From Escherichia coli (GTDB lineage: Bacteria; Pseudomonadota; Gammaproteobacteria; Enterobacterales; Enterobacteriaceae): a DNA stretch of 64,000 nucleotides. Location: assembly GCF_036507355.1 (NCBI RefSeq), contig NZ_AP027877.1, one strand, 5' to 3'. The translations under genes and the position numbers were made by a program. Shown here piece by piece: positions 1 through 33,997 of this stretch (its first letter is position 1; each line of letters opens with the position of its first letter). The notes under the pieces are model-generated. The model was not told the origin of the DNA, did not search any database, and saw only the letters and a list, made by a program, of their open reading frames with translations.

Positions 1-721
1 TCGCCAGCGACAGCGCCGCCAGACGCGTCAGCGACAAGGCCAGCCCGAGATTGCGTGCCACACCATCATCAAGCCCCATCAGGGTTAACGGGCGAAGTAG
101 CAATAACGTCAGCATCACGCCGCCCAGCAGCTGCGGCCATAAACGCTCAACGCCGCCCCAGTCGGTTTGCGTCAGCGTTCCAGTGCTCCACAGAAACATG
201 CTTTGCAACTGGTCATGATGGAAGATAACCAGTAATTGATTGATTGCCCCACAATAAAGGCTCACTACCAGCCCCGCGAGAATCAGCGTTACCGGCGACA
301 GCCGTTTCCCCCACGCGACGCCAAAGACAATTAAGCCAACAACACAAGCCCCTGCCAGCGCAGCAAACTGGCTCGCCATCGCACCAGGGATCGCCCAGAG
401 CGTCGTGACGGTAATCCCCAGTTGCGCGCCTGTAGCAACGCCCAACGTCGTCGGTTCCGCCAGCGGGTTACGCAGCACTTGCTGAAACAGCACGCCCACC
501 AGCCCCAGGCCCGCACCCACCAGCAGCGAAATCGCCAGACGCGGCAACAAGCTGTAGTGAAAAATCATCTGCTCGATGACGTTAATATCCGGCGACCAGG
601 CGGCCTGCGCCCACTGGCTACGCGGCAGCGCCTGCGAAAAGTTCATCCAGGTCAGCGCCGTAGCGACAATCACCAGCAGCGCCAGCAATAACGCCGGGAA
701 AAGCGCAATTCGTTTACTCAC
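1..721 (-). CDS. fhuB: Ferrichrome/hydroxamate ABC transporter permease FhuB, N-terminal part; gene runs off the window start
   Basis: Minus-strand GTG at 719-721 followed by codons for MSKRIA...; start overlaps fhuD stop (GTGA); frame open to window edge. Confidence 0.85.
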   Translation of the reverse strand, partial: MSKRIALFPALLLALLVIVATALTWMNFSQALPRSQWAQAAWSPDINVIEQMIFHYSLLPRLAISLLVGAGLGLVGVLFQQVLRNPLAEPTTLGVATGAQLGITVTTLWAIPGAMASQFAALAGACVVGLIVFGVAWGKRLSPVTLILAGLVVSLYCGAINQLLVIFHHDQLQSMFLWSTGTLTQTDWGGVERLWPQLLGGVMLTLLLLRPLTLMGLDDGVARNLGLALSLTRLAALSLA

Positions 722-1608
722 GCTTTACCTCCGATGGCGTTATCCAGAACGCGCACAAAGTGCATTGCCGAGAGCGTCGCACCATAAAACCAGACTGCAG
801 GTACGCGCTGAAAGCGTCCGGCGCGGACAAACGGCATGGCCTGCCACAGCGGGGTTGCCATTAGCGCATCCATGTCTTTGCTGTTGTCGTGATCAAAACA
901 GAGCACATCAACGTCTTTATACGCTGCCAGACGATCGATGCTGACGGCGGTACTGCCCCAGAAGTTGGTTTCCCCTTGCCAGGCATTTGGGATGCCGTAC
1001 TCATCAAGAATTTCCTGGAACAAGCTGTTTGGACCGAAGACCAACATATGGCGCGGATCGATAAGCGTCGTCAGCAATAACGGGCGTGCACCACGCTTCA
1101 CAAAGCGGGGTTTCATGCTGCGGATAAAGTCTTCATAGTGCGCTAAATGCGTTTCCGCTGCGCTTTGCAGGTTAAGTAAATCTGCCATTTCCGTCAGTGA
1201 TTTACGCGCCATCGCCAGCGGCTGTTTGCCGTCGCTGAAGTTAAATCCACGCCCCGGCGCAATACGAGCCAGCATTTCTGGTGAAGGGCCATATCCTGCC
1301 GACCAGACCATAAACGACGGTTTCATTTCGGTCAGCAGTTCAAGGTTAGGTTCTGTGCGCAAACCGACGTCAATCACCGATTCAGGTAACGGTGGTTCGC
1401 TAACCCACAGGCGATAGTTGATGGTGTCCGCCACGCCGTAAGGCACGATGCCGAGCGCCAGCAGTAATTCCACCGGCAACCACTCCAGCGCCACAATACG
1501 CGTTGGATCAATAGCCGCCGCGTGGGCGGTATTCATCTGCCATAACAACGGAGAAAGCGCCATCGCCGTTAACAGTCGACGGCGCGAAATAAGAGGTAAG
1601 CCGCTCAT
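718..1608 (-). CDS. fhuD: Periplasmic ferrichrome-binding protein FhuD
   Basis: ORF track 718..1611 (297 aa); start taken at second Met (MSGLPLISRRRLL...), signal peptide; overlaps fhuC stop. Confidence 0.9.
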   Translation of the reverse strand: MSGLPLISRRRLLTAMALSPLLWQMNTAHAAAIDPTRIVALEWLPVELLLALGIVPYGVADTINYRLWVSEPPLPESVIDVGLRTEPNLELLTEMKPSFMVWSAGYGPSPEMLARIAPGRGFNFSDGKQPLAMARKSLTEMADLLNLQSAAETHLAHYEDFIRSMKPRFVKRGARPLLLTTLIDPRHMLVFGPNSLFQEILDEYGIPNAWQGETNFWGSTAVSIDRLAAYKDVDVLCFDHDNSKDMDALMATPLWQAMPFVRAGRFQRVPAVWFYGATLSAMHFVRVLDNAIGGKA

Positions 1609-2405
1609 CAATAAACAAAACTCACAGGTGCAGCACCCGCCGGATGCGGCAAAATACCCATCGGGATGCCATAAATCATTTCGAGGGTTTCGCCGCGCAT
1701 AATTTCCGCAGGCGTTCCCTGAGCAATCATTTCACCGCCGCGTAGAGCGACCAGATAATCACAGTAGCGTGCCGCCATATTGATATCGTGCAGCACGGCA
1801 ATGACCGTCAGACCACGTTCCTGACTTAAACGGTGCACCAGCGCCAGCACATCAACCTGGTGGGCGATATCCAACGCCGAGGTCGGTTCGTCGAGCAACA
1901 GACAACGGCTATCCTGCGCCACCAGCATGGCGATCCACGCCCGCTGACGCTCACCGCCAGAGAGACTATCGACCAGCCGATGCGCCAGCGGTTTTAAGCC
2001 AACCAGCGAGATAGCTTCCTCAACTTTTTCGCGATCTGCCGCACCAAAGCGCCCCAGAGCGCCATGCCATGGGTAACGACCAATCGCCACCAGTTCACGC
2101 ACGGTCATCCCTTCTGCCGGAGGAAGCTGCTGCGGCAAATAAGCCACTTTGCGGGCAAACGCTTTGCTGCTCCAGCTTTCCAGCGGCTGGGCATCAAGAA
2201 GAATCTCCCCTTCTGACGGAGGCTGATGACGGCCAAGCATTTTGAGCAGAGTGGATTTACCAGAACCGTTGTGACCAATCAGACCGGTCACTTTCCCGGC
2301 TGGAAAGGTTAACGACAGCGGATGCAAAAGCGTGCGCCCGGGCACACGAAAGGAGATATTACGCAGTGCAAAAGTGGTATCGGAATGATTCGTGTATTCC
2401 TGCAT
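1608..2405 (-). CDS. fhuC: Ferrichrome ABC transporter ATP-binding protein FhuC
   Basis: ORF track 1608..2447; start at internal ATG 2403-2405 (MQEYTNHSD...); Walker A GHNGSGKST and LSGGERQR signature. Confidence 0.9.
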   Translation of the reverse strand: MQEYTNHSDTTFALRNISFRVPGRTLLHPLSLTFPAGKVTGLIGHNGSGKSTLLKMLGRHQPPSEGEILLDAQPLESWSSKAFARKVAYLPQQLPPAEGMTVRELVAIGRYPWHGALGRFGAADREKVEEAISLVGLKPLAHRLVDSLSGGERQRAWIAMLVAQDSRCLLLDEPTSALDIAHQVDVLALVHRLSQERGLTVIAVLHDINMAARYCDYLVALRGGEMIAQGTPAEIMRGETLEMIYGIPMGILPHPAGAAPVSFVY

Positions 2406-2424
2406 AACAGCCAACTTGTGAAAC

Positions 2425-2444
2425 GGGCACGGAAATCCGTGCCC
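2425..2444 (-). other. Intercistronic stem-loop between fhuA and fhuC (8-bp stem gggcacgg/ccgtgccc, 4-nt loop)
   Basis: Perfect inverted repeat read directly; only a weak U tract follows on the minus strand, so more likely an attenuator or processing site than a full terminator. Confidence 0.4.
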
Positions 2445-2455
2445 CAAAAGAGAAA

Positions 2456-4699
2456 TTAGAAACGGAAGGTTGCGGTTGCAACGACCTGACGTTCTGCGCC
2501 CCAGAAGCAGCCATAAGTGTTAAAGCAGCTGGCGACGTATTCACGATCGAACAGGTTGTTAACATGCAGCGCCACGTTGGAGCCAGCCATGCCGACTCGC
2601 GCCAGATCATAACGCACTAACGCATCCACGACCGTATAACTTCCCACTTTAAAGGAGTTAGCCGGATCACCATAGCTGGAGCCAGTATAACGACCACCGG
2701 TGCCCAGCGTCAGACCTGAAAGCGGACCGTCAAAGAAGGTATAGTCAGCCCACAGCGAAGCCATGTGTTTTGGCACCTGTGCCGGCGTATTGCCTTTATA
2801 GGTAGTATCGGTGGTGTATTCCGCATCGGTGTAGGTGTAAGAACCAACTAAGTTAACACTCGCCGATAGTGCCGCTTTCGCTTCGATTTCTACGCCACGT
2901 GCGCGGATCTCGCCACCTTCAACCGAGAAGAAGGAACCCTCAGGGTCCGCCATCAGGTTGTTGGTTTTAGTGAGATTATACACGGCACCAGTAACTACAA
3001 TCGGACGATCTTCCGGTACATATTTCACGCCGACTTCATACTGCTTACCTTTAGACGGTGCGAAAATATTACCATCCTTCCCAACTTGCGAAGAAGGTTC
3101 AAACGATTCGCTATAGCTAAAGTAAGGTGTTACGCCATTATCAAACAGGTAGTTAACACCACCACGCCAGGTAAACTGTTTGTCATCGCGTTTATCGGTC
3201 GTCCCGGCAACGCGGTTAAGAGATTCTTGATCTGCCCAGTCATAACGACCGCCCAGGGTGACCAGCACTTTATCCCACTGCGCCTGATCCTGAACATAAA
3301 CGCCCGTTTGTTTCTGTTTATTCAGAATGCGGTAAGGGCCGGAGTTTGCCGGATCTTTGGCATTGAAGTCGAAATCGGTATTCACCGGATTGTACAGATT
3401 GAGCAGTGGCACAGAGTCGTCGTAACCAAACCAGGCGTTGATGTCATTACGCATACGCATAAAGTCGACACCGGTCAACAGGGTGTGGTCGATATCGCCA
3501 GTGGCAAACTTGCTCTGCAACTGGGTATCAACAGAGAAATTTTGCAGCTTCTCATCATCAACGACGTATTTACGCGCCAGATAATGGCCTTTATCCGCTG
3601 GCGCTAATGCCGCACACTGTTTGCTGTAAGCATTCGCTGGATCGGAGCAGACGCCGTAACCATAAACGCTGTTTTGCGAGGTTTTGTTTTCAGCAAAGCG
3701 CAGGTTCTGACGCACAGTAAAGGTGTCGTTAAATTCGTGATCGAAGCTGTAGCCCACCATCTTCTCATTACGAGAATAGGTGTTGTTCTTCGCCCCTTCG
3801 TTAAAGTCTGTCGGCAGACGCTTACCGTTCGGCAGCGGCTCAACGGTTCCCTCTTTCGGCAACCAGCCGTAATAACCCGTTTCCGGCTCGTTCTGGAAGT
3901 AAGAGAGGAAGGTGAAATTGGTTTTATCATCCGGACGCCAGGTGAACGCCGGTGCAATAGCATAACGCTGCTCTTCTGACCCTTTCTGCTGGGCATTGGC
4001 AGAACGCGCAAGACCGGTCAGGCGATAAGAGTAAACGCCGTCATCATCCAGCGCATCGCTAAAGTCAAAACCAGTCTGGAACAGGCTGTCAGTACCGGCT
4101 TTAAACTGAACTTCTTTCAGCGGTTCGGTGGTCGGACGCTTGCTGACCATATTCAACAGACCGCCAGGACTGCTTTTACCGTAAAGCACGGAAACCGGGC
4201 CACGCATAATTTCAGCGCGTTCCAGCATATACGGATCAATGACCGCATCGTTATAGAAGTTGCCCTGCAACTTCAGGCCATTCAGATAGTTATTCTGGCT
4301 TTGGCCTTCTGCCGCAAAACCGCGAATGATCAGGTGGTCATAGGTGTTGGATGCGCCACGCGTACCAACAGAGACACCCGGCGTATAGCTAAGCGCTTCT
4401 TTCACCGACTTAGGCTGATGCAGCGCCATCTCTTCAGCGGTCACAACAGAAATAGACTGAGGTACTTTTTGAATCGGCGTATCGGTTTTAGTGCCGGTAG
4501 CTGACTGTCGCGCCGCAATAGTTGCAGCAGGCCCCCATGCGCTTTCTTGCGGCGCAGGTGCAGCGGTAACGGTGATAGTGTCTTCTTTCGGTTCAACCGC
4601 TGCCTGTGCATAAACAGACATGCCGCTAACCGCTGTGGCTACTACAACTGCGATTTTACGCAGTGAGTGTTTTGGCTGAGCAGTTTTGGAACGCGCCAT
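2456..4699 (-). CDS. fhuA: TonB-dependent ferrichrome outer-membrane receptor FhuA
   Basis: ORF track 747 aa beginning MARSKTAQPKHSLRKIAVVVATAVSGMSVYAQA (signal peptide) and ending with terminal F; recognised as FhuA. Confidence 0.95.
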   Translation of the reverse strand: MARSKTAQPKHSLRKIAVVVATAVSGMSVYAQAAVEPKEDTITVTAAPAPQESAWGPAATIAARQSATGTKTDTPIQKVPQSISVVTAEEMALHQPKSVKEALSYTPGVSVGTRGASNTYDHLIIRGFAAEGQSQNNYLNGLKLQGNFYNDAVIDPYMLERAEIMRGPVSVLYGKSSPGGLLNMVSKRPTTEPLKEVQFKAGTDSLFQTGFDFSDALDDDGVYSYRLTGLARSANAQQKGSEEQRYAIAPAFTWRPDDKTNFTFLSYFQNEPETGYYGWLPKEGTVEPLPNGKRLPTDFNEGAKNNTYSRNEKMVGYSFDHEFNDTFTVRQNLRFAENKTSQNSVYGYGVCSDPANAYSKQCAALAPADKGHYLARKYVVDDEKLQNFSVDTQLQSKFATGDIDHTLLTGVDFMRMRNDINAWFGYDDSVPLLNLYNPVNTDFDFNAKDPANSGPYRILNKQKQTGVYVQDQAQWDKVLVTLGGRYDWADQESLNRVAGTTDKRDDKQFTWRGGVNYLFDNGVTPYFSYSESFEPSSQVGKDGNIFAPSKGKQYEVGVKYVPEDRPIVVTGAVYNLTKTNNLMADPEGSFFSVEGGEIRARGVEIEAKAALSASVNLVGSYTYTDAEYTTDTTYKGNTPAQVPKHMASLWADYTFFDGPLSGLTLGTGGRYTGSSYGDPANSFKVGSYTVVDALVRYDLARVGMAGSNVALHVNNLFDREYVASCFNTYGCFWGAERQVVATATFRF

Positions 4700-4918: not shown

Positions 4919-7453
4919 TTAATTACTACCAAACATATCTTTAATCCAACCGGCTACACCGTCGCTGTCTTTCTGCTCTTGCTGAGCAGGTTGCTGTTGC
5001 GGTTGTTGCTGCGGCTGAGAAGACTGATCAAACGGATTGCCTGACGGTTGCTGCTGCATCTCACTCTGCTGGCACAGCGATTGCGGATCGCTGGTCCAGA
5101 CCGGCAAGACACGCATGCCACCGCTGCAAACAAAGTTGCCGTCGTAGTCCACGCCCATATCTGCAATATCTTCTGGCGGAACAAGATTCAGCGGTGTTGG
5201 CGTCTGGTTAGCCAGATAACGCTGATAAATCGACATTGCCCCGCTGGCTCCATACAGTTTGGTCGGCTGGTTGTTATCACGGCCTACCCAGGTGATGGTC
5301 ACCGTGCTGCCGTCAATGCCCGCAAACCAGGTATCTACGTTATTGTTGGTAGTCCCTGTTTTCCCTGCCAGATGCAGGTTCGGGTATTTCGCCCCAAGCT
5401 GACGACCCGTACCGCGTTGTACCACCTGCTGCATGGTCCATAGTGTCAGATACGCCGCCTGCGCCGGAACAGCGCGTTCCGCCTGCGGGAAGCTCTGATA
5501 CAGCACTTTGCCATCTTCCGCGATTACCGAACGCAGCGCAGAAAGCGGTGCACGGTTACCACCGCTGGCGATGGTCTGGAATGCCTGCGCCACTTCGATT
5601 GGCGTTAAGTTCAACGCCCCCAGCAGCATTGCCGGAACCGGATGCAACTGATCTTTCGGTACGCCCAGTTTAATCCAGGTATCCGTAACCGCAGGCAGCC
5701 CCAGCGCCATCCCCAGATTTACCGTCGGCACGTTCATCGAACGGGTCAACGCATCCACCAGCATCACTCTGCCGCTTTCGCTATAACGACGGTCATCGTT
5801 CTGCGGTGACCAGACCTGGCCATTCGGCTGACGCAGCGCAATTGGCGCATCCGCAATCCACGTATTCAGACGATAGATTTTCGGCTGGCTTAAGGCCGTC
5901 AGATAAGTCGCTGGTTTTGCAAGGGAACCAATCGAACGACGCGCCTGCATCGCACGGTTGTAGCCCGCAAACTGCGGCTCAGAACCTCCGACCATCGCAC
6001 GAACTTCACCACTAAAGCGGTCGACGACCACAATCGCAGTTTCAAGATCGCTCAACTTACGCTGTTTCTTCAGTGCAGGAATGCCTTCCACGGCGGCTTT
6101 TTCTGCCGCGTCCTGGGCCACCGAGTCAAAGGTAGTGAAGATCTTCACGCCGGAGAGATCTTTTACCTTATCGCCTAATTTCGCTTGCAGCTCCTGACGC
6201 ACCAATTGCATAAAGGCTGGCTGTGGAGAGATTACCCCACCGCGCGGCTGAACCCCCAGCGGACGCGCACTCAACATGTCATAGAGTTCTTGATCAATAA
6301 TCTGTTGCTGTTGCAGCAGACGCAGTACCAGATTACGTCGCTCCAGCGCCAGTTTCGGGTTACGCCACGGGTTGTAGATGGACGCTCCTTTCACCATACC
6401 GACTAACAGCGCCTGCTGATCGAGGCTCAATTCTTCTACCGGGCGACCAAAGTAATACAAGCTCGCCAGCGGGAAGCCGCGGATTTCGTTGTCGCCACTC
6501 TGACCGAGATACACCTCGTTCATATACAGCTCAAGAATACGGTCTTTGCTGTAACGCGCGTCCATGATCAGCGCCATGTAAGCTTCGTTCGCTTTACGCC
6601 AGTAAGAGCGCTCGCTGGAGAGGAACAGGTTTTTCACCAGCTGTTGCGTCAGCGTACTCGCCCCCTGCACCGTGCGTCCGGCTGTCAGGTTTGCCAGCAC
6701 CGCACGTCCGATGGAGTAGAGACTGATTCCATCATGCTCGTAGAAATGGCGGTCTTCTGTCGCCAGCAAAGTATCCACCAGCAAATCCGGGAAACCACTG
6801 CGCGGCACAAACAAACGCTGCTCACCGTTTGGTGAGGAGATCATGGTGATCAGACGCGGATCAAGACGGAAGAAACCGAACTGACGGTTGTTCTCCATAT
6901 TGACGATCGTCGCCAGATGATCGCCATCAAAGGTCAGACGCGCGCGCACCTGTCCTTCTTTACTGTCCGGGAAATCAAACGGACGGCGAATCATCTCAAT
7001 GCTGTTGGCCTTCACGGTAAATTCGCCAGGACGGGTCATTTTTGACACCTGACGATACTGGGTTGCCTCCAGCAGCTTCACCATTTCGTTCTTGCTGATG
7101 GTCATGTCTGGCTCAAGGTTGACCATTCGGCCATAAACTGCCGCAGGCAGTTGCCAGACCTTGCCATCAATACGGCTGCGAATTTTTTGATCGAGATAAA
7201 CGCCGTAAATGGCGATCAGCACGGCAAAAACGATAGCCAGTTTTAACAGCAGCCATAGCCAGCCGCGTTTGCCACGAGGCTTACGCCCTTTGCCTTTGCC
7301 CTTACCTTTGCGCGGCATCGGTTCTTCATCCTCATAGTCATCATAATCGTCGTAATCATCGTCATCTTCGTAACGACGACGGCTTACCTTTTGTTTGACC
7401 GGACGCGTCGGTTTCCCTTTGCGTCCAATTGGCTCGCGGTCATTCCCGGCCAT
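4919..7453 (-). CDS. mrcB: Penicillin-binding protein 1B (bifunctional glycosyltransferase/transpeptidase)
   Basis: ORF track 4919..7468; start at ATG 7451-7453 ([14 protein letters not shown]...); acidic [15 protein letters not shown] tract; recognised as PBP1b. Confidence 0.93.
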
Positions 7454-7545
7454 GCTTTTTCTCCGCAATATTCAGGCGCAAAAGCCCGATTTTCTGTTCT
7501 TCTGTTACAAGACAGAAGAAGATATCTCTCAAAATTTGCTTTTCT

Positions 7546-7632
7546 CCCTCTCCCTGTGGGAGAGGGCCGGGGTGAGGGCATCAGCGCGCACATTACCCCT
7601 CACCCTATCCCTCTCCCCATAGGGGCGAGGGG
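7546..7632. repeat. GC-rich nested palindromic element in the hrpB-mrcB spacer (possibly boxC-like)
   Basis: Hairpin ccctctccc-tgt-gggagaggg at 7546-7566; ggggtgaggg (7569-7578) pairs with cccctcaccc (7596-7605); second hairpin cctctcccc-at-aggggcgaggg at 7609-7632. Confidence 0.5.
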
Positions 7633-7648
7633 ACTGCTCATACCCGTT

Positions 7649-10078
7649 TTACGAATACTTTTTCGTCCGTCGCGTCGGTGCCGTGTTTGCCGGGTCGTCC
7701 GGCCAGACGTGTTTGGGATAACGCCCTTTCATCTCCTTTTGCACCTCACGATACGCCCCTTTCCAGAAGGCCCCCAAATCACGCGTGATTTGCAGCGGCC
7801 TTTGGGCAGGGGAAAGCAACTCCAGCACCAGCGGCACGCGCCCCTGGGCGATCGTCGGATTGGTGGCCTCACCAAACATCTCCTGCATTCTCACCGCCAG
7901 CGCGGGCGGGTTATCTTCATGATAACGAATGGCGATCCGGCTTCCCGTCGGCACAGTGTAATGCGCAGGCAATTCACTATCCAGACGTTGCTGCATTCCC
8001 CAATCAAGTAATCCGCGTAGTGCCTGATAAATGTCGAGTGATTTCAGGCCGCGTAGTGAATGTACACCGGCCATATGTGGCAGCAGCCACGTTTCCAGCG
8101 TCCCCAACAAACTTTCAACATCAACCGCTGGCCAGTCATATTCTGGCAACCACTTTCCGGCGCATAACAAACGCAAGCGTAGCTGTTCCGCTTCCGCCGT
8201 CCAGTTGAGCACGCTTAAACCTTTATCACGGATGCCGTTAAGCATCGCCTGATGCAACTCGTCTTCTGACGGTTTCGCCAACGGCTGCACTTTCACCGTC
8301 AACTGACCGATTTGCAGCCGACGCCAGGCTTTCAGCGTACCTTGCGCGTCATCCCATTCCACGGTGTCAGATTGCTGCACCAGCTGCGGACAGCGTCGCA
8401 CTAATTCATCAATATCGACCGGTAGCGCCAGTAAAATCCGCGCATCCGGCGAGGCGCTGCCCTGCAATAATAACGGTGCGATCAACCATTCGTGGCGGCT
8501 TAGCGCGTCGTCGGCATCGAGCATCGCTCCCATGCCGTTTGCCAGTTGATAGCGTCCATCTTGCCCACGGCGGCGAGCAATGCGATCGGCAAACGCCCCG
8601 GCAAGTAGCAGCGCGATAAGCGAACTGTCTGCCTCACCGCCGCGTACGTTTAAGCGTTTTAACAGTTGCTGACTACGTTGCTGCCAGGCTGGTTGATTGC
8701 GCGAAAACGCCACGCCCAAGTCACTATTGCCCATCCGTGGCGGCTCTTCGAGAATGGCGGCAATTTTTGCCGCGGTAGCAGCTTCGTCGTCGCTCTTTGC
8801 GCTAACCAGCATTGCCGCTAAACGCGGATCGTTACCCAGCGCTGCCATTTTTTGCCCCTGCGCACTAAGCCGTTCACCGTCCAGCGCCCCCAGCATCTTT
8901 AACAGGCGTTTCGCGGCCAGTAAATTCACTGCTGGCGGTTGATCCAGCCAGCTCATCTGCGCCGGATCGCTGCATCCCCATTGCAGTAATTCCATCAGCA
9001 AACCGGAAAGATCGCTTTGTAATATTTCCGGTTCACTTTGCGCCGCGGCGCGTTCTGCTTGTTCCTTGGCGATTAAATGCAGGCAGATACCCGGCTCCAG
9101 ACGCCCGGCGCGCCCGGCACGCTGCGTCATGGATGCCTGGCTAACGCGTTGAGTAATCAGTCGCGTAAGCCCCGTGCGCGGATCAAAACGCGCCACACGC
9201 TCCTGGGCACAATCCACCACCAGACGAATACCTTCAATGGTTAAACTGGTTTCAGCAATATTGGTCGCCAGCACCACTTTGCGCATCCCTTGCGGTGCCG
9301 GGAGGATCGCTTTTCGCTGATCGTTCAGCGACAACGCGCCATACAGCGGGCAGAGCAATACATCACTGCCGATGCGCGAAGCCAGTTGTTCCTGCACACG
9401 CTGAATTTCTCCGACGCCAGGTAAAAATAACAGTAATGATCCGCTTTCCTGACGCAGCATTTCAGCGGTGGCTACCGCAACGGCATCGTCAAAACGCTGA
9501 TGCGTGGGCAGCGGTAAATAACGGCGTTCAACCGGAAACGAGCGCCCTTCTGAGATGACGACGGGCGCTTCTGGCAGCATTTGCTGCAAGCGGTCGTTGT
9601 CCAGCGTAGCCGACATAATCAGCAGTTTAAGGTCATCACGCAGACCTTGTTGCACATCGAGTAACAGCGCCAACGCCAAATCCGCCTGCAAGCTACGCTC
9701 ATGAAATTCATCAAGGATCACCAATCCAACACCGCTCAGTTCCGGGTCACGCTGGATCATCCGCGTCAGCACGCCTTCGGTAACTACTTCCAGGCGGGTA
9801 TTCGGCCCGACGCAGTTTTGCGCACGCATCCGGTAGCCAACGGTATCGCCTGGCTTTTCGTTAAGCAGCTCCGCCAGCCGTTGCGCGACATTACGCGCCG
9901 CCAGACGACGCGGCTCCAGCAGGATAATTTTCCCGTTAATGCCGGGATGCGCCAGCAGTTGCAGCGGCAGCCAGGTTGATTTCCCGGCCCCGGTCGGCGC
10001 ACTTAATAATACCTGCGGCGCACAATCGAGAGCGGTAAGTAATTCAGGTAAGACGGCAGCAACGGGCAACGACGACAC
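7649..10078 (-). CDS. hrpB: ATP-dependent DEAH-box RNA helicase HrpB
   Basis: ORF track 7649..10123 (824 aa); GTG at 10076-10078 gives the 809-aa form I recall for K-12, ATG at 10121-10123 is the alternative; helicase motif SAPTGAGKST. Confidence 0.85.
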   Translation of the reverse strand: MSSLPVAAVLPELLTALDCAPQVLLSAPTGAGKSTWLPLQLLAHPGINGKIILLEPRRLAARNVAQRLAELLNEKPGDTVGYRMRAQNCVGPNTRLEVVTEGVLTRMIQRDPELSGVGLVILDEFHERSLQADLALALLLDVQQGLRDDLKLLIMSATLDNDRLQQMLPEAPVVISEGRSFPVERRYLPLPTHQRFDDAVAVATAEMLRQESGSLLLFLPGVGEIQRVQEQLASRIGSDVLLCPLYGALSLNDQRKAILPAPQGMRKVVLATNIAETSLTIEGIRLVVDCAQERVARFDPRTGLTRLITQRVSQASMTQRAGRAGRLEPGICLHLIAKEQAERAAAQSEPEILQSDLSGLLMELLQWGCSDPAQMSWLDQPPAVNLLAAKRLLKMLGALDGERLSAQGQKMAALGNDPRLAAMLVSAKSDDEAATAAKIAAILEEPPRMGNSDLGVAFSRNQPAWQQRSQQLLKRLNVRGGEADSSLIALLLAGAFADRIARRRGQDGRYQLANGMGAMLDADDALSRHEWLIAPLLLQGSASPDARILLALPVDIDELVRRCPQLVQQSDTVEWDDAQGTLKAWRRLQIGQLTVKVQPLAKPSEDELHQAMLNGIRDKGLSVLNWTAEAEQLRLRLLCAGKWLPEYDWPAVDVESLLGTLETWLLPHMAGVHSLRGLKSLDIYQALRGLLDWGMQQRLDSELPAHYTVPTGSRIAIRYHEDNPPALAVRMQEMFGEATNPTIAQGRVPLVLELLSPAQRPLQITRDLGAFWKGAYREVQKEMKGRYPKHVWPDDPANTAPTRRTKKYS

Positions 10079-33898: not shown

Positions 33899-33997
33899 TG
33901 CCGGATGCGGCGTGAACGCCTTATCCAGCCTACAAAATTGTGCAAAATCAATGGATTGCACAGGTAGCGTAGGCCTGATAAGCGTAGCGCATCAGGC
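33899..33997. repeat. BIME: two inverted REP units between gcd and cueO
   Basis: tgccggatgcggcgtgaacgccttatccagcctac and gtaggcctgataagcgtagcgcatcaggc are canonical REP sequences. Confidence 0.75.

Follow-up and report, generated by a model that had tools for sequence, protein, structure and literature searches.

The spacer between hrpB and mrcB in a 64,000-nucleotide stretch of Escherichia coli DNA, the whole of which is referred to here as the window, contains an inverted pair of BoxC repeats consisting of one type B and one type A unit, an identification about which we have virtually no doubt. BoxC is a dispersed, non-coding, intergenic repeat, and the single strand of each unit folds into a GC hairpin of 9-10 bp and forms a triplex in vitro; the pair in its entirety can form one hairpin of about 40 bp. 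The pair is an ordinary, already known and catalogued element, the K-12 copy in the same spacer being listed in published catalogues. What appears to be new is the inversion of the segment relative to K-12 and the rarity of this arrangement, the occurrence of the same orientation in Enterobacter, Lelliottia and Leclercia, and the loss of the pair in about 40% of E. coli. With respect to activity, the reading we favour, with a probability of roughly 0.6, is that of an RNA 3'-end-defining, exonuclease-blocking hairpin carried by an otherwise selfish repeat, and not that of a classical intrinsic terminator.

The hrpB-mrcB Spacer and Its Palindromes

Both genes lie on the E. coli window's minus strand, hrpB at 10123-7649 and mrcB at 7453-4919. 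With the hrpB stop codon at 7651-7649 and the mrcB ATG at 7453-7451, the spacer in between covers 7454-7648, and the length of 195 bp given in the initial annotation is borne out by these gene coordinates. RefSeq has no annotation inside the spacer. The BoxC pair is intergenic here, situated between the hrpB stop and the conserved mrcB leader.

The initial annotation had placed two hairpins and a long-range pairing, described as three interlocking repeats, at 7546-7632, and a repeat finder recovered all of them, far above chance. Read on the plus strand from 7540, the sequence is TTTTCT CCCTCTCCC TGT GGGAGAGGG CCG GGGTGAGGG CATCAGCGCGCACATTA CCCCTCACCC TAT CCCTCTCCCC ATA GGGGCGAGGGG ACTGCTC. 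The first hairpin (7546-7554 / 7558-7566) has the form CCCTCTCCC TGT GGGAGAGGG with 9 of 9 pairs formed, and the second (7609-7618 / 7622-7631) has the form CCCTCTCCCC ATA GGGGCGAGGG, with a stem of 10 bp that includes one mismatch. The long-range arms found by the repeat finder (7558-7578 / 7597-7617) are 21 nt long and 86% complementary, and they have a perfect core in which GGGTGAGGG at 7570-7578 pairs with CCCTCACCC at 7597-7605. The pairing of ggggtgaggg with cccctcaccc that had been proposed earlier does exist, but the two 10-mers were quoted one base out of register and the perfect stretch is 9 bp, not 10. Both the 21-mer arm and the published family pattern have two matches in the window, against 0.00 expected from 100 shuffles. 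An RNA fold check, also proposed earlier, showed that both strands fold far better than shuffled sequences: the predicted fold reaches -58.7 kcal/mol (z = -3.8) for the hrpB-sense strand and -61.8 kcal/mol (z = -5.5) for the plus strand, with 0 of 200 shuffles as good in either case. Although all three repeats are present, they are better seen as two BoxC units, type B and type A, placed head to head.

Assignment to the BoxC Family

The family to which the element belongs has been described as BoxC (Bergler 1992; Bachellier 1999), as PIT elements (Hoyne & Maher 2000, 2002), as TMECO (Holder 2015, PMC4666352) and as HPG1/HPG2 (Kaplan 2016, PMC5100583). Holder et al. (2015), who renamed the family TMECO, state that it equals BoxC as well as the PIT elements of Hoyne and Maher (PMC4666352). 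The TMECO consensus, CCCTCNCCC-N3-6-GGGNGAGGG-N3-GGGNGAGGG (Holder 2015, PMC4666352), is matched exactly at 7546-7578 on the plus strand and at 7597-7631 on the minus strand, against 0.00 expected in 100 shuffles, and the earlier guess of a boxC-like family was right. Each unit consists of one pyrimidine block followed by two purine blocks, an arrangement in which a single strand is able to fold back twice, forming a hairpin and a third strand.

The type B unit (7546-7579, plus strand) reads CCCTCTCCC TGT GGGAGAGGG CCG GGGTGAGGG C and is identical to K-12 TMECO 1. It is preceded by a tail at 7540-7545 (TTTTCT on the plus strand, AGAAAA on the hrpB-sense strand), which accompanies B units of other loci as well as of other genera, as an alignment of five pairs and the orthologous spacers show, and which is matched by published BoxC members ending GGGGGAAAAG (PMC2267715). 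The type A unit (7596-7632, minus strand) reads CCCTCGCCCC TAT GGGGAGAGGG ATA GGGTGAGGGG; it has one stem mismatch, as in the class designated 'A mm', and its second loop is ATA instead of the usual TTA. Its tail (7633-7648, plus strand, beginning ACTGCTCATACCCGTT), recognized from the BoxC FASTA file and the pair alignment, reaches the hrpB stop codon and resembles the ACYGNYCGNG tails of published BoxC members. Type A units are distinguished by a second loop TTA and type B units by a second loop CCG, pairs always consist of one A and one B unit on opposite strands, and five such inverted pairs were described in K-12 (Holder 2015, PMC4666352). The pair in the window agrees with this scheme: the B unit on the plus strand has the loop CCG, and its partner on the minus strand has A-type blocks and a loop that differs from TTA by one base.

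The asymmetric centre of the pair (7579-7596, CATCAGCGCGCACATTA, about 17 nt) is locus-specific. A 49-nt query over this centre has a median of one place per genome in 2,938 E. coli genomes, and the other K-12 pairs have a different centre of 27-29 nt in the alignment of five pairs. The repeat itself is multi-copy, as the copy count suggested in the initial annotation established: of 5,426 complete E. coli genomes, 5,324 gave matches to a 116-nt query, at a median of 12 places each, and for the A half alone the median is 15, with a range of 1 to 27 among strains. A strict count of BoxC units gives 23 and the older count about 33. The element is thus neither single-copy nor missing from orthologous spacers, and three papers list the orthologous K-12 copy, giving either its name or its coordinates. 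It is eco:1_BoxC in the E. coli BoxC FASTA file (Petrillo/Cozzuto 2008, PMC2267715, supplement 69), it comprises TMECO 1, type B, at 164547-164580 (+) and TMECO 2, type A, at 164631-164597 (-) (PMC4666352, Table 1), and the same locus appears as HPGQ 5 and 6 among putative G-quadruplex motifs (Kaplan 2016, PMC5100583). No literature on the BoxC family later than 2015-2016 was found among the papers searched. A search of 7000-8200 against Rfam at a permissive threshold gave nothing at the gathering threshold; the best match was a miRNA hairpin model with 29.1 bits against 72, and the miRNA-precursor matches, all below threshold, were rejected as generic hairpin matches.

Orientation of the Pair Relative to K-12

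The variable part of the spacer is a 111-nt segment (7538-7648) that extends from the hrpB stop to the conserved mrcB leader, and the distance from the stop to the conserved AAATTTTGAGAG comes to exactly 111 nt in the window as in K-12; in Lelliottia the segment also measures 111 nt. Alignment of the spacers showed that the whole pair is opposite to that of K-12 in orientation relative to the genes: the K-12 segment is 81% identical to the window once re-inverted and 67% identical as it stands. The two pairs have an identical B unit and a common short centre, CATCAGCGCGCAC(A/G)TT, that is absent from the other K-12 pairs, and the unit-specific tails moved together with the units between the orientations. 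Because the B unit is identical, the single-copy centre is common, the tails moved along and both segments measure 111 nt, we conclude that the window and K-12 carry one copy that was flipped. Two independent insertions in opposite orientation were considered and are ruled out by the centre, which occurs once per genome and is common to both classes, and by the equal length. Inversion by recombination between the arms was rejected as a sufficient explanation since the tails moved with their units, and no inverted repeats were seen by eye at the borders of the 111-nt segment.

The orientation found in the window is rare in E. coli. At an identity of at least 98% it was present in only 31 of 5,426 complete genomes, the next best matches, at 77.8%, being of the K-12 type. 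These strains, among them 88-3493, CP53 and EC1515, do not form one clone: their flanks differ by 0.6-3.7% and their spacers at 0-3 positions. It is probably the window that keeps the widespread, ancestral arrangement, and the K-12 reference type, which makes up about 60% of E. coli, that is the flipped form, since other genera have the orientation of the window and the re-inverted K-12 segment is 84% identical to that of Lelliottia. The opposite polarity, in which the window would carry a derived inversion, was considered and reversed on the same evidence.

Both orientations occur in E. coli and in other genera, as would be expected if the 111-nt segment were a programmed, phase-variable switch that flips within a strain and alters mrcB or hrpB expression. 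We give this explanation next to no credence. The segment has no flanking inverted repeats besides the palindrome itself and no promoter-like site inside it, and there is no recombinase gene next to the pair, its neighbours being hrpB and mrcB. In addition, window-type spacers show 0-3 differences, whereas the compared flanks show 9-54 per about 1.4 kb (up to about 3.7%), and the A half differs between the orientation classes. The identity of 81% that is left after re-inversion indicates diverged alleles and not interconverting states.

Deletions and Instability of the Locus in E. coli

The spacer alleles found in E. coli are 195, 131/137 and 93 bp long, in addition to the inverted form. A full-length spacer is present in about 3,264 complete E. 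coli genomes and shorter alleles in about 2,160, with two kinds among those fetched, so that in about 40% of complete E. coli genomes the pair is partly or wholly lost and no intact one is left. The 93-bp spacer, represented by ATCC 25922, has no pair, and the 131-bp allele, represented by UTME-9, has a single hairpin left. Judging from its sequence, the 131-bp allele is the product of slippage between the two direct GGGAGAGGG 9-mers, which removed the inner part. Such slippage deletions correspond to the 'palindrome effect' of Holder et al. (2015), who describe more local variability at TMECO loci (PMC4666352), and the instability observed here agrees with their account. As hrpB stop codon, the pair-carrying alleles of both window and K-12 type have TAA, whereas the 93-bp alleles, E. 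albertii and E. whittamii have TGA, from which it follows that the rearrangement boundary abuts or includes the stop codon. The pattern TTCTTCTGTTRCAAGACAGAAGAA matched all 11 fetched E. coli hrpB-mrcB loci; its 0 matches in the species-representative collection probably reflect a limit of the scan and not biology.

At the level of DNA, this self-complementarity makes the site unstable, and the changes observed are slippage deletions between the 9-bp direct repeats, loss of the pair and inversion of the 111-nt segment. One explanation of the element takes DNA structure as its essence: an intrastrand triplex, a G-quadruplex or a cruciform would form during replication or under supercoiling and would either cause local genome instability or serve as a topological site or one for protein binding. 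Oligonucleotides of types A and B form a triplex in vitro as judged by CD and NMR (Holder 2015, PMC4666352), and the B unit in the window has the same sequence as one oligonucleotide type tested in that work; a switch between G-quadruplex and hairpin was also seen in vitro (Kaplan 2016, PMC5100583). The deletions between direct GGGAGAGGG repeats, the loss of the pair and the inversion of the whole segment point in the same direction. In vivo, however, DMS footprinting gave no triplex and only signals of double-stranded DNA duplex (PMC4666352), no effect on replication was found according to Hoyne & Maher (2002) as cited in PMC4666352, and the instability is a consequence of structure that provides no evidence of a selected function. 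We therefore regard a DNA-level role as quite improbable.

The Spacer in Other Enterobacteriaceae

Upstream regions of mrcB were surveyed from the mrcB start codons in one genome per species, covering at least 120 loci, and 109 spacers could be delimited among the matches listed. BoxC sequence is present in at least 25 of these 109 spacers. Among the same matches, at least about 19 spacers of other species match the window in the place and orientation of a type B unit; they belong to Enterobacter, Leclercia, Lelliottia, one Buttiauxella and other Enterobacteriaceae. Their layout is GTGCGGCCTGATG-[B]-AGAAAAC...TTTTGAGAGAT, and the distance from the end of the B unit to the ATG is 90-93 nt, or at least 125 nt where extra sequence is inserted, for instance a terminator-like hairpin with a T-run. 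Lelliottia sp. V86_10 has the full pair in the orientation of the window, with an A unit identical to K-12 TMECO 2, and the K-12 segment is 84% identical to its segment when re-inverted and 68% as it stands. A Pseudocitrobacter genome has the K-12 orientation with the same centre, so that the 111-nt segment appears flipped in at least two lineages, namely most E. coli and this genome.

Closer to E. coli, the strain E69, labelled 'E. coli', is of the full window type, and internal deletions are present in Escherichia sp. E1V33 (K-12 type) and in strain SCPM-O-B-8794 (window type). E. albertii and E. whittamii have the 93-bp form, and among the matches listed an intact pair is absent from this locus in these two species and in Salmonella and Citrobacter. 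The sequence A(G/A)ACCAAA(G/C)C of the 93-bp form resembles the B tail and may perhaps be a deletion remnant.

Across genera, the mean pairwise identity of the B unit is 93%, compared with 82% for the adjacent conserved mrcB leader. This conservation could result from selection or from homogenisation among copies of the family. If it were selection, the BoxC unit adjoining the mrcB leader would be an old, selected cis-element rather than junk, a reading based on the constancy of the B unit's place and direction among Escherichia, Enterobacter, Lelliottia, Leclercia and genera related to them, and on the unit's marking the 3' end of hrpB. We consider this unlikely, although it is not negligible. 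Were it true, it would require a function that is independent of orientation, or an inversion of whole elements specific to palindromes, neither of which has been described for BoxC.

Some spacers contain further rearrangements. The spacer of Enterobacteriaceae bacterium RIT691 is 509 bp long and has five BoxC units, in which a composite module is tandemly duplicated, its parts being an A unit, the GTGCGGCCTGATG centre, a B unit and, before a hairpin, AGCAAACACTAAAG; this suggests that larger modules containing BoxC can be duplicated as one block. In the B hairpin, the loop is TGT in Enterobacter sp. MGH 24 and ACA at the orthologous site of the other species, in a comparison that included the window, a flip restricted to the loop as expected from template switching inside a perfect hairpin. 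In Salmonella enterica subsp. arizonae and diarizonae and in Leclercia, a REP-like sequence (GCC.GATAAGGCGT...GCC.TCCGGC) replaces or adjoins BoxC in the same spacer. As REP-like and BoxC sequences both occur there, the interval from the hrpB stop to the mrcB leader seems to serve palindromic repeats in general as a landing place.

The mrcB leader itself was also compared. In window coordinates 7454-7537 (minus strand, mrcB sense), 116 distinct Enterobacteriaceae spacers share a conserved block of about 80 nt before the mrcB start, with an invariant TTGAGAGAT(A/T)TCTTCTT box, upstream of which everything is variable. In a leader hairpin (7497-7505 / 7512-7520), 4-5 of 6 predicted pairs have compensatory changes, one example pair being GC 62 times, AU 21 times, GU 15 times and UA five times. 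This hairpin is followed by GAGAATC, a second hairpin (CRGGC..GCCTG) with A-U/G-U alternation, and a Shine-Dalgarno sequence. From this pattern the block looks like a structured mrcB leader or a regulatory site; it had no Rfam match, and a simple scan found no sigma-70-like promoter in it.

RNA 3' Ends at BoxC Hairpins

RNA 3' ends were taken from curated Term-seq tables for K-12 under three growth conditions (Adams et al. 2021, PMC7815308 supplements), which were searched by BoxC sequence. K-12 has a curated 3' end at 164636 (+), which follows the outer hairpin of the orthologous pair by 5 nt and precedes mrcB by 94 nt, in the context GGGAGAGGGGACCG^ATCG, or extended CCCTCTCCCTCAAGGGAGAGGGGACCG^ATCG; it has a low score (987) and is listed once in the three-condition table (PMC7815308). 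Two further ends, in NC_000913.3 coordinates, are located at 3781065 (+), the primary 3' end of lldD, at TMECO 17, and at 3959467 (-), at TMECO 20 between ilvC and ppiC (PMC7815308). Each of the three lies 4-5 nt after a BoxC hairpin, and all three units are perfect-stemmed. For the one-mismatch 'A mm' units, which constitute most of BoxC, the sequence search of the Term-seq table found no associated 3' end.

A 3' end situated a few nucleotides past a stable hairpin that lacks a U tract is the expected outcome of exonucleolytic trimming up to a protective structure, as established for REP elements and for Rho-dependent transcripts (see Dar & Sorek 2018). It is this placement, shortly after a stable hairpin and with no U tract, that makes us favour an RNA 3'-end role. 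The BoxC pair would be transcribed at the end of the hrpB message, and its last perfect hairpin would stop 3'-to-5' exonucleolytic trimming, or otherwise fix the 3' end 4-5 nt past the stem, in the manner of REP. Being a near-palindrome, the pair would offer the same kind of terminal hairpin in either orientation, which would explain why both are tolerated. In the window, the predicted last hairpin of the hrpB-sense transcript (7541-7566, minus strand) is CCCUCUCCC ACA GGGAGAGGG, running from 7566 to 7546; as the perfect B hairpin is the last one of the hrpB-sense RNA in this orientation, the 3' end of the hrpB RNA is predicted 4-5 nt beyond it, at about 7542-7541. We infer the exonuclease barrier, the position of the 3' end in the window strain and any benefit to the cell from these considerations. 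The evidence for an RNA role is thin, for the Term-seq end, besides its low score and single listing, comes from K-12 alone, where the pair faces the other way. Moreover, any function must be dispensable, since about 40% of complete E. coli genomes, as well as E. albertii, E. whittamii, Salmonella and Citrobacter, have no intact pair. The initial annotation had also put forward a role as mRNA stabiliser, and this suggestion gains some, tentative support from the K-12 3' end 5 nt after the outer hairpin and the ends at two other BoxC units.

The main suggestion of the initial annotation, that hrpB transcription ends at a classical intrinsic terminator or insulator which also protects the mrcB promoter, has fared less well. 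In its favour, the pair is placed between the stop codon of hrpB and the conserved mrcB leader, its GC hairpins are strong, an RNA 3' end is close by in K-12, and hrpB and mrcB are separate transcription units in RegulonDB. However, a terminator scan of 7350-7750 on both strands returned 0 sites, and no stem is followed by a U tract; the stems continue into AGAAAAGC (hrpB sense) or ACTGCTC (plus strand) and not into a T/U run. A scan for sigma-70-like promoters found none on either strand. The Adams 2021 table has no Rho-termination region near 164.5-164.8 kb (PMC7815308), and Hoyne & Maher (2002), as cited in PMC4666352, report neither promoter nor terminator activity and no in vivo phenotype or effect on replication. 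Several Enterobacter and Leclercia spacers have a separate canonical hairpin with a T-run between the B unit and the leader, suggesting that the B unit itself does not terminate. In our judgement, a terminator or insulator is very improbable.

The main rival to the 3'-end role is that the pair is a purely selfish or neutral dispersed repeat without any role here, the nearby 3' end being incidental to a stable hairpin in a weakly expressed transcript. The published tests, as cited in PMC4666352, found no function, and no bias in gene class or distance has been reported (PMC4666352). About 40% of E. coli genomes and, among the matches listed, most related genera have a truncated pair or none, and copy number varies from 1 to 27 between strains. 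On the other hand, several genera retain the B unit in the same place and direction, its conservation exceeds that of the adjacent leader, and RNA 3' ends occur at the same offset from three different units. We see the purely selfish explanation as a serious but rather unlikely one, and retain the 3'-end-defining hairpin as the preferred reading.

Discussion

As an element, the pair adds little, given that BoxC pairs, including the K-12 copy at this locus, had already been catalogued with no phenotype attached. We did not find the polymorphism in orientation, the conserved position across genera or the connection to RNA 3' ends in the BoxC literature examined, and regard them as small additions. 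Four names (BoxC, PIT, TMECO and HPGQ) denote the same sequences, and the spacer is empty in the reference annotation. Joining the repeat catalogue to published Term-seq data yields a testable activity at the RNA level, which concerns the units with perfect hairpins, for a family whose function has been open since 1992. The hrpB-mrcB spacer is in addition a compact natural series for the behaviour of a palindrome, with ancestral orientation, inversion of the whole segment, slippage deletions and complete loss at one site. It also serves as a warning, as the K-12 reference probably carries the derived arrangement there.

Comparison With Known Repeat Families

Among other repeat families, the Correia/NEMIS elements of Neisseria and other MITEs are small, non-autonomous repeats that form long RNA hairpins, alter the 3' ends or processing of neighbouring transcripts and are polymorphic for presence and absence, as is BoxC. 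They differ in being tied to a transposase through terminal inverted repeats and target-site duplications, features that were not seen at the BoxC pair; no transposase, whether of the RAYT type or another, is known for BoxC. The flanks differ between BoxC loci in the alignment of five pairs, and Holder et al. (2015) found no link of TMECO to mobile elements (PMC4666352).

ERIC/IRU resembles BoxC as a dispersed enterobacterial, intergenic, imperfect palindrome that is transcribed within mRNAs, whereas its unit is 127 bp long and its consensus unrelated. Its core, which we take to be AAGTAAGTGACTGGGGTGAGCG, has a sole match in the window at 24397-24418 (exact), not at the BoxC element. REP elements (PU, organized in BIMEs) are likewise short, GC-rich, palindromic and intergenic, often occur as inverted pairs, and protect upstream mRNA from 3' exonucleases. 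They have another consensus and a single stem, in contrast to the three-block, triplex-capable layout of BoxC. With up to 3 mismatches allowed, the REP consensus GCCGGATGCGGCGTRAACGCCTTATCCGGCCTAC has its sole match in the window at 33900-33933 (1 mismatch); in the comparison with published consensus sequences proposed in the initial annotation, BoxC thus matched the element exactly twice and REP did not match it. The window accordingly contains a member of both of these other dispersed families, the ERIC/IRU core and the REP sequence at the positions given.

The correspondence with BoxC/PIT/TMECO/HPG extends to the exact consensus of both units, the A and B subtypes, the inverted A+B pair, the tails, the intergenic position and the multiple copies. 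The window pair differs from the K-12 copy in its opposite orientation and in its A unit, which has one mismatch and the loops TAT and ATA, while K-12 TMECO 2 is a perfect type A unit with the loops TGA and TTA. These differences are allelic and lie within the BoxC family.
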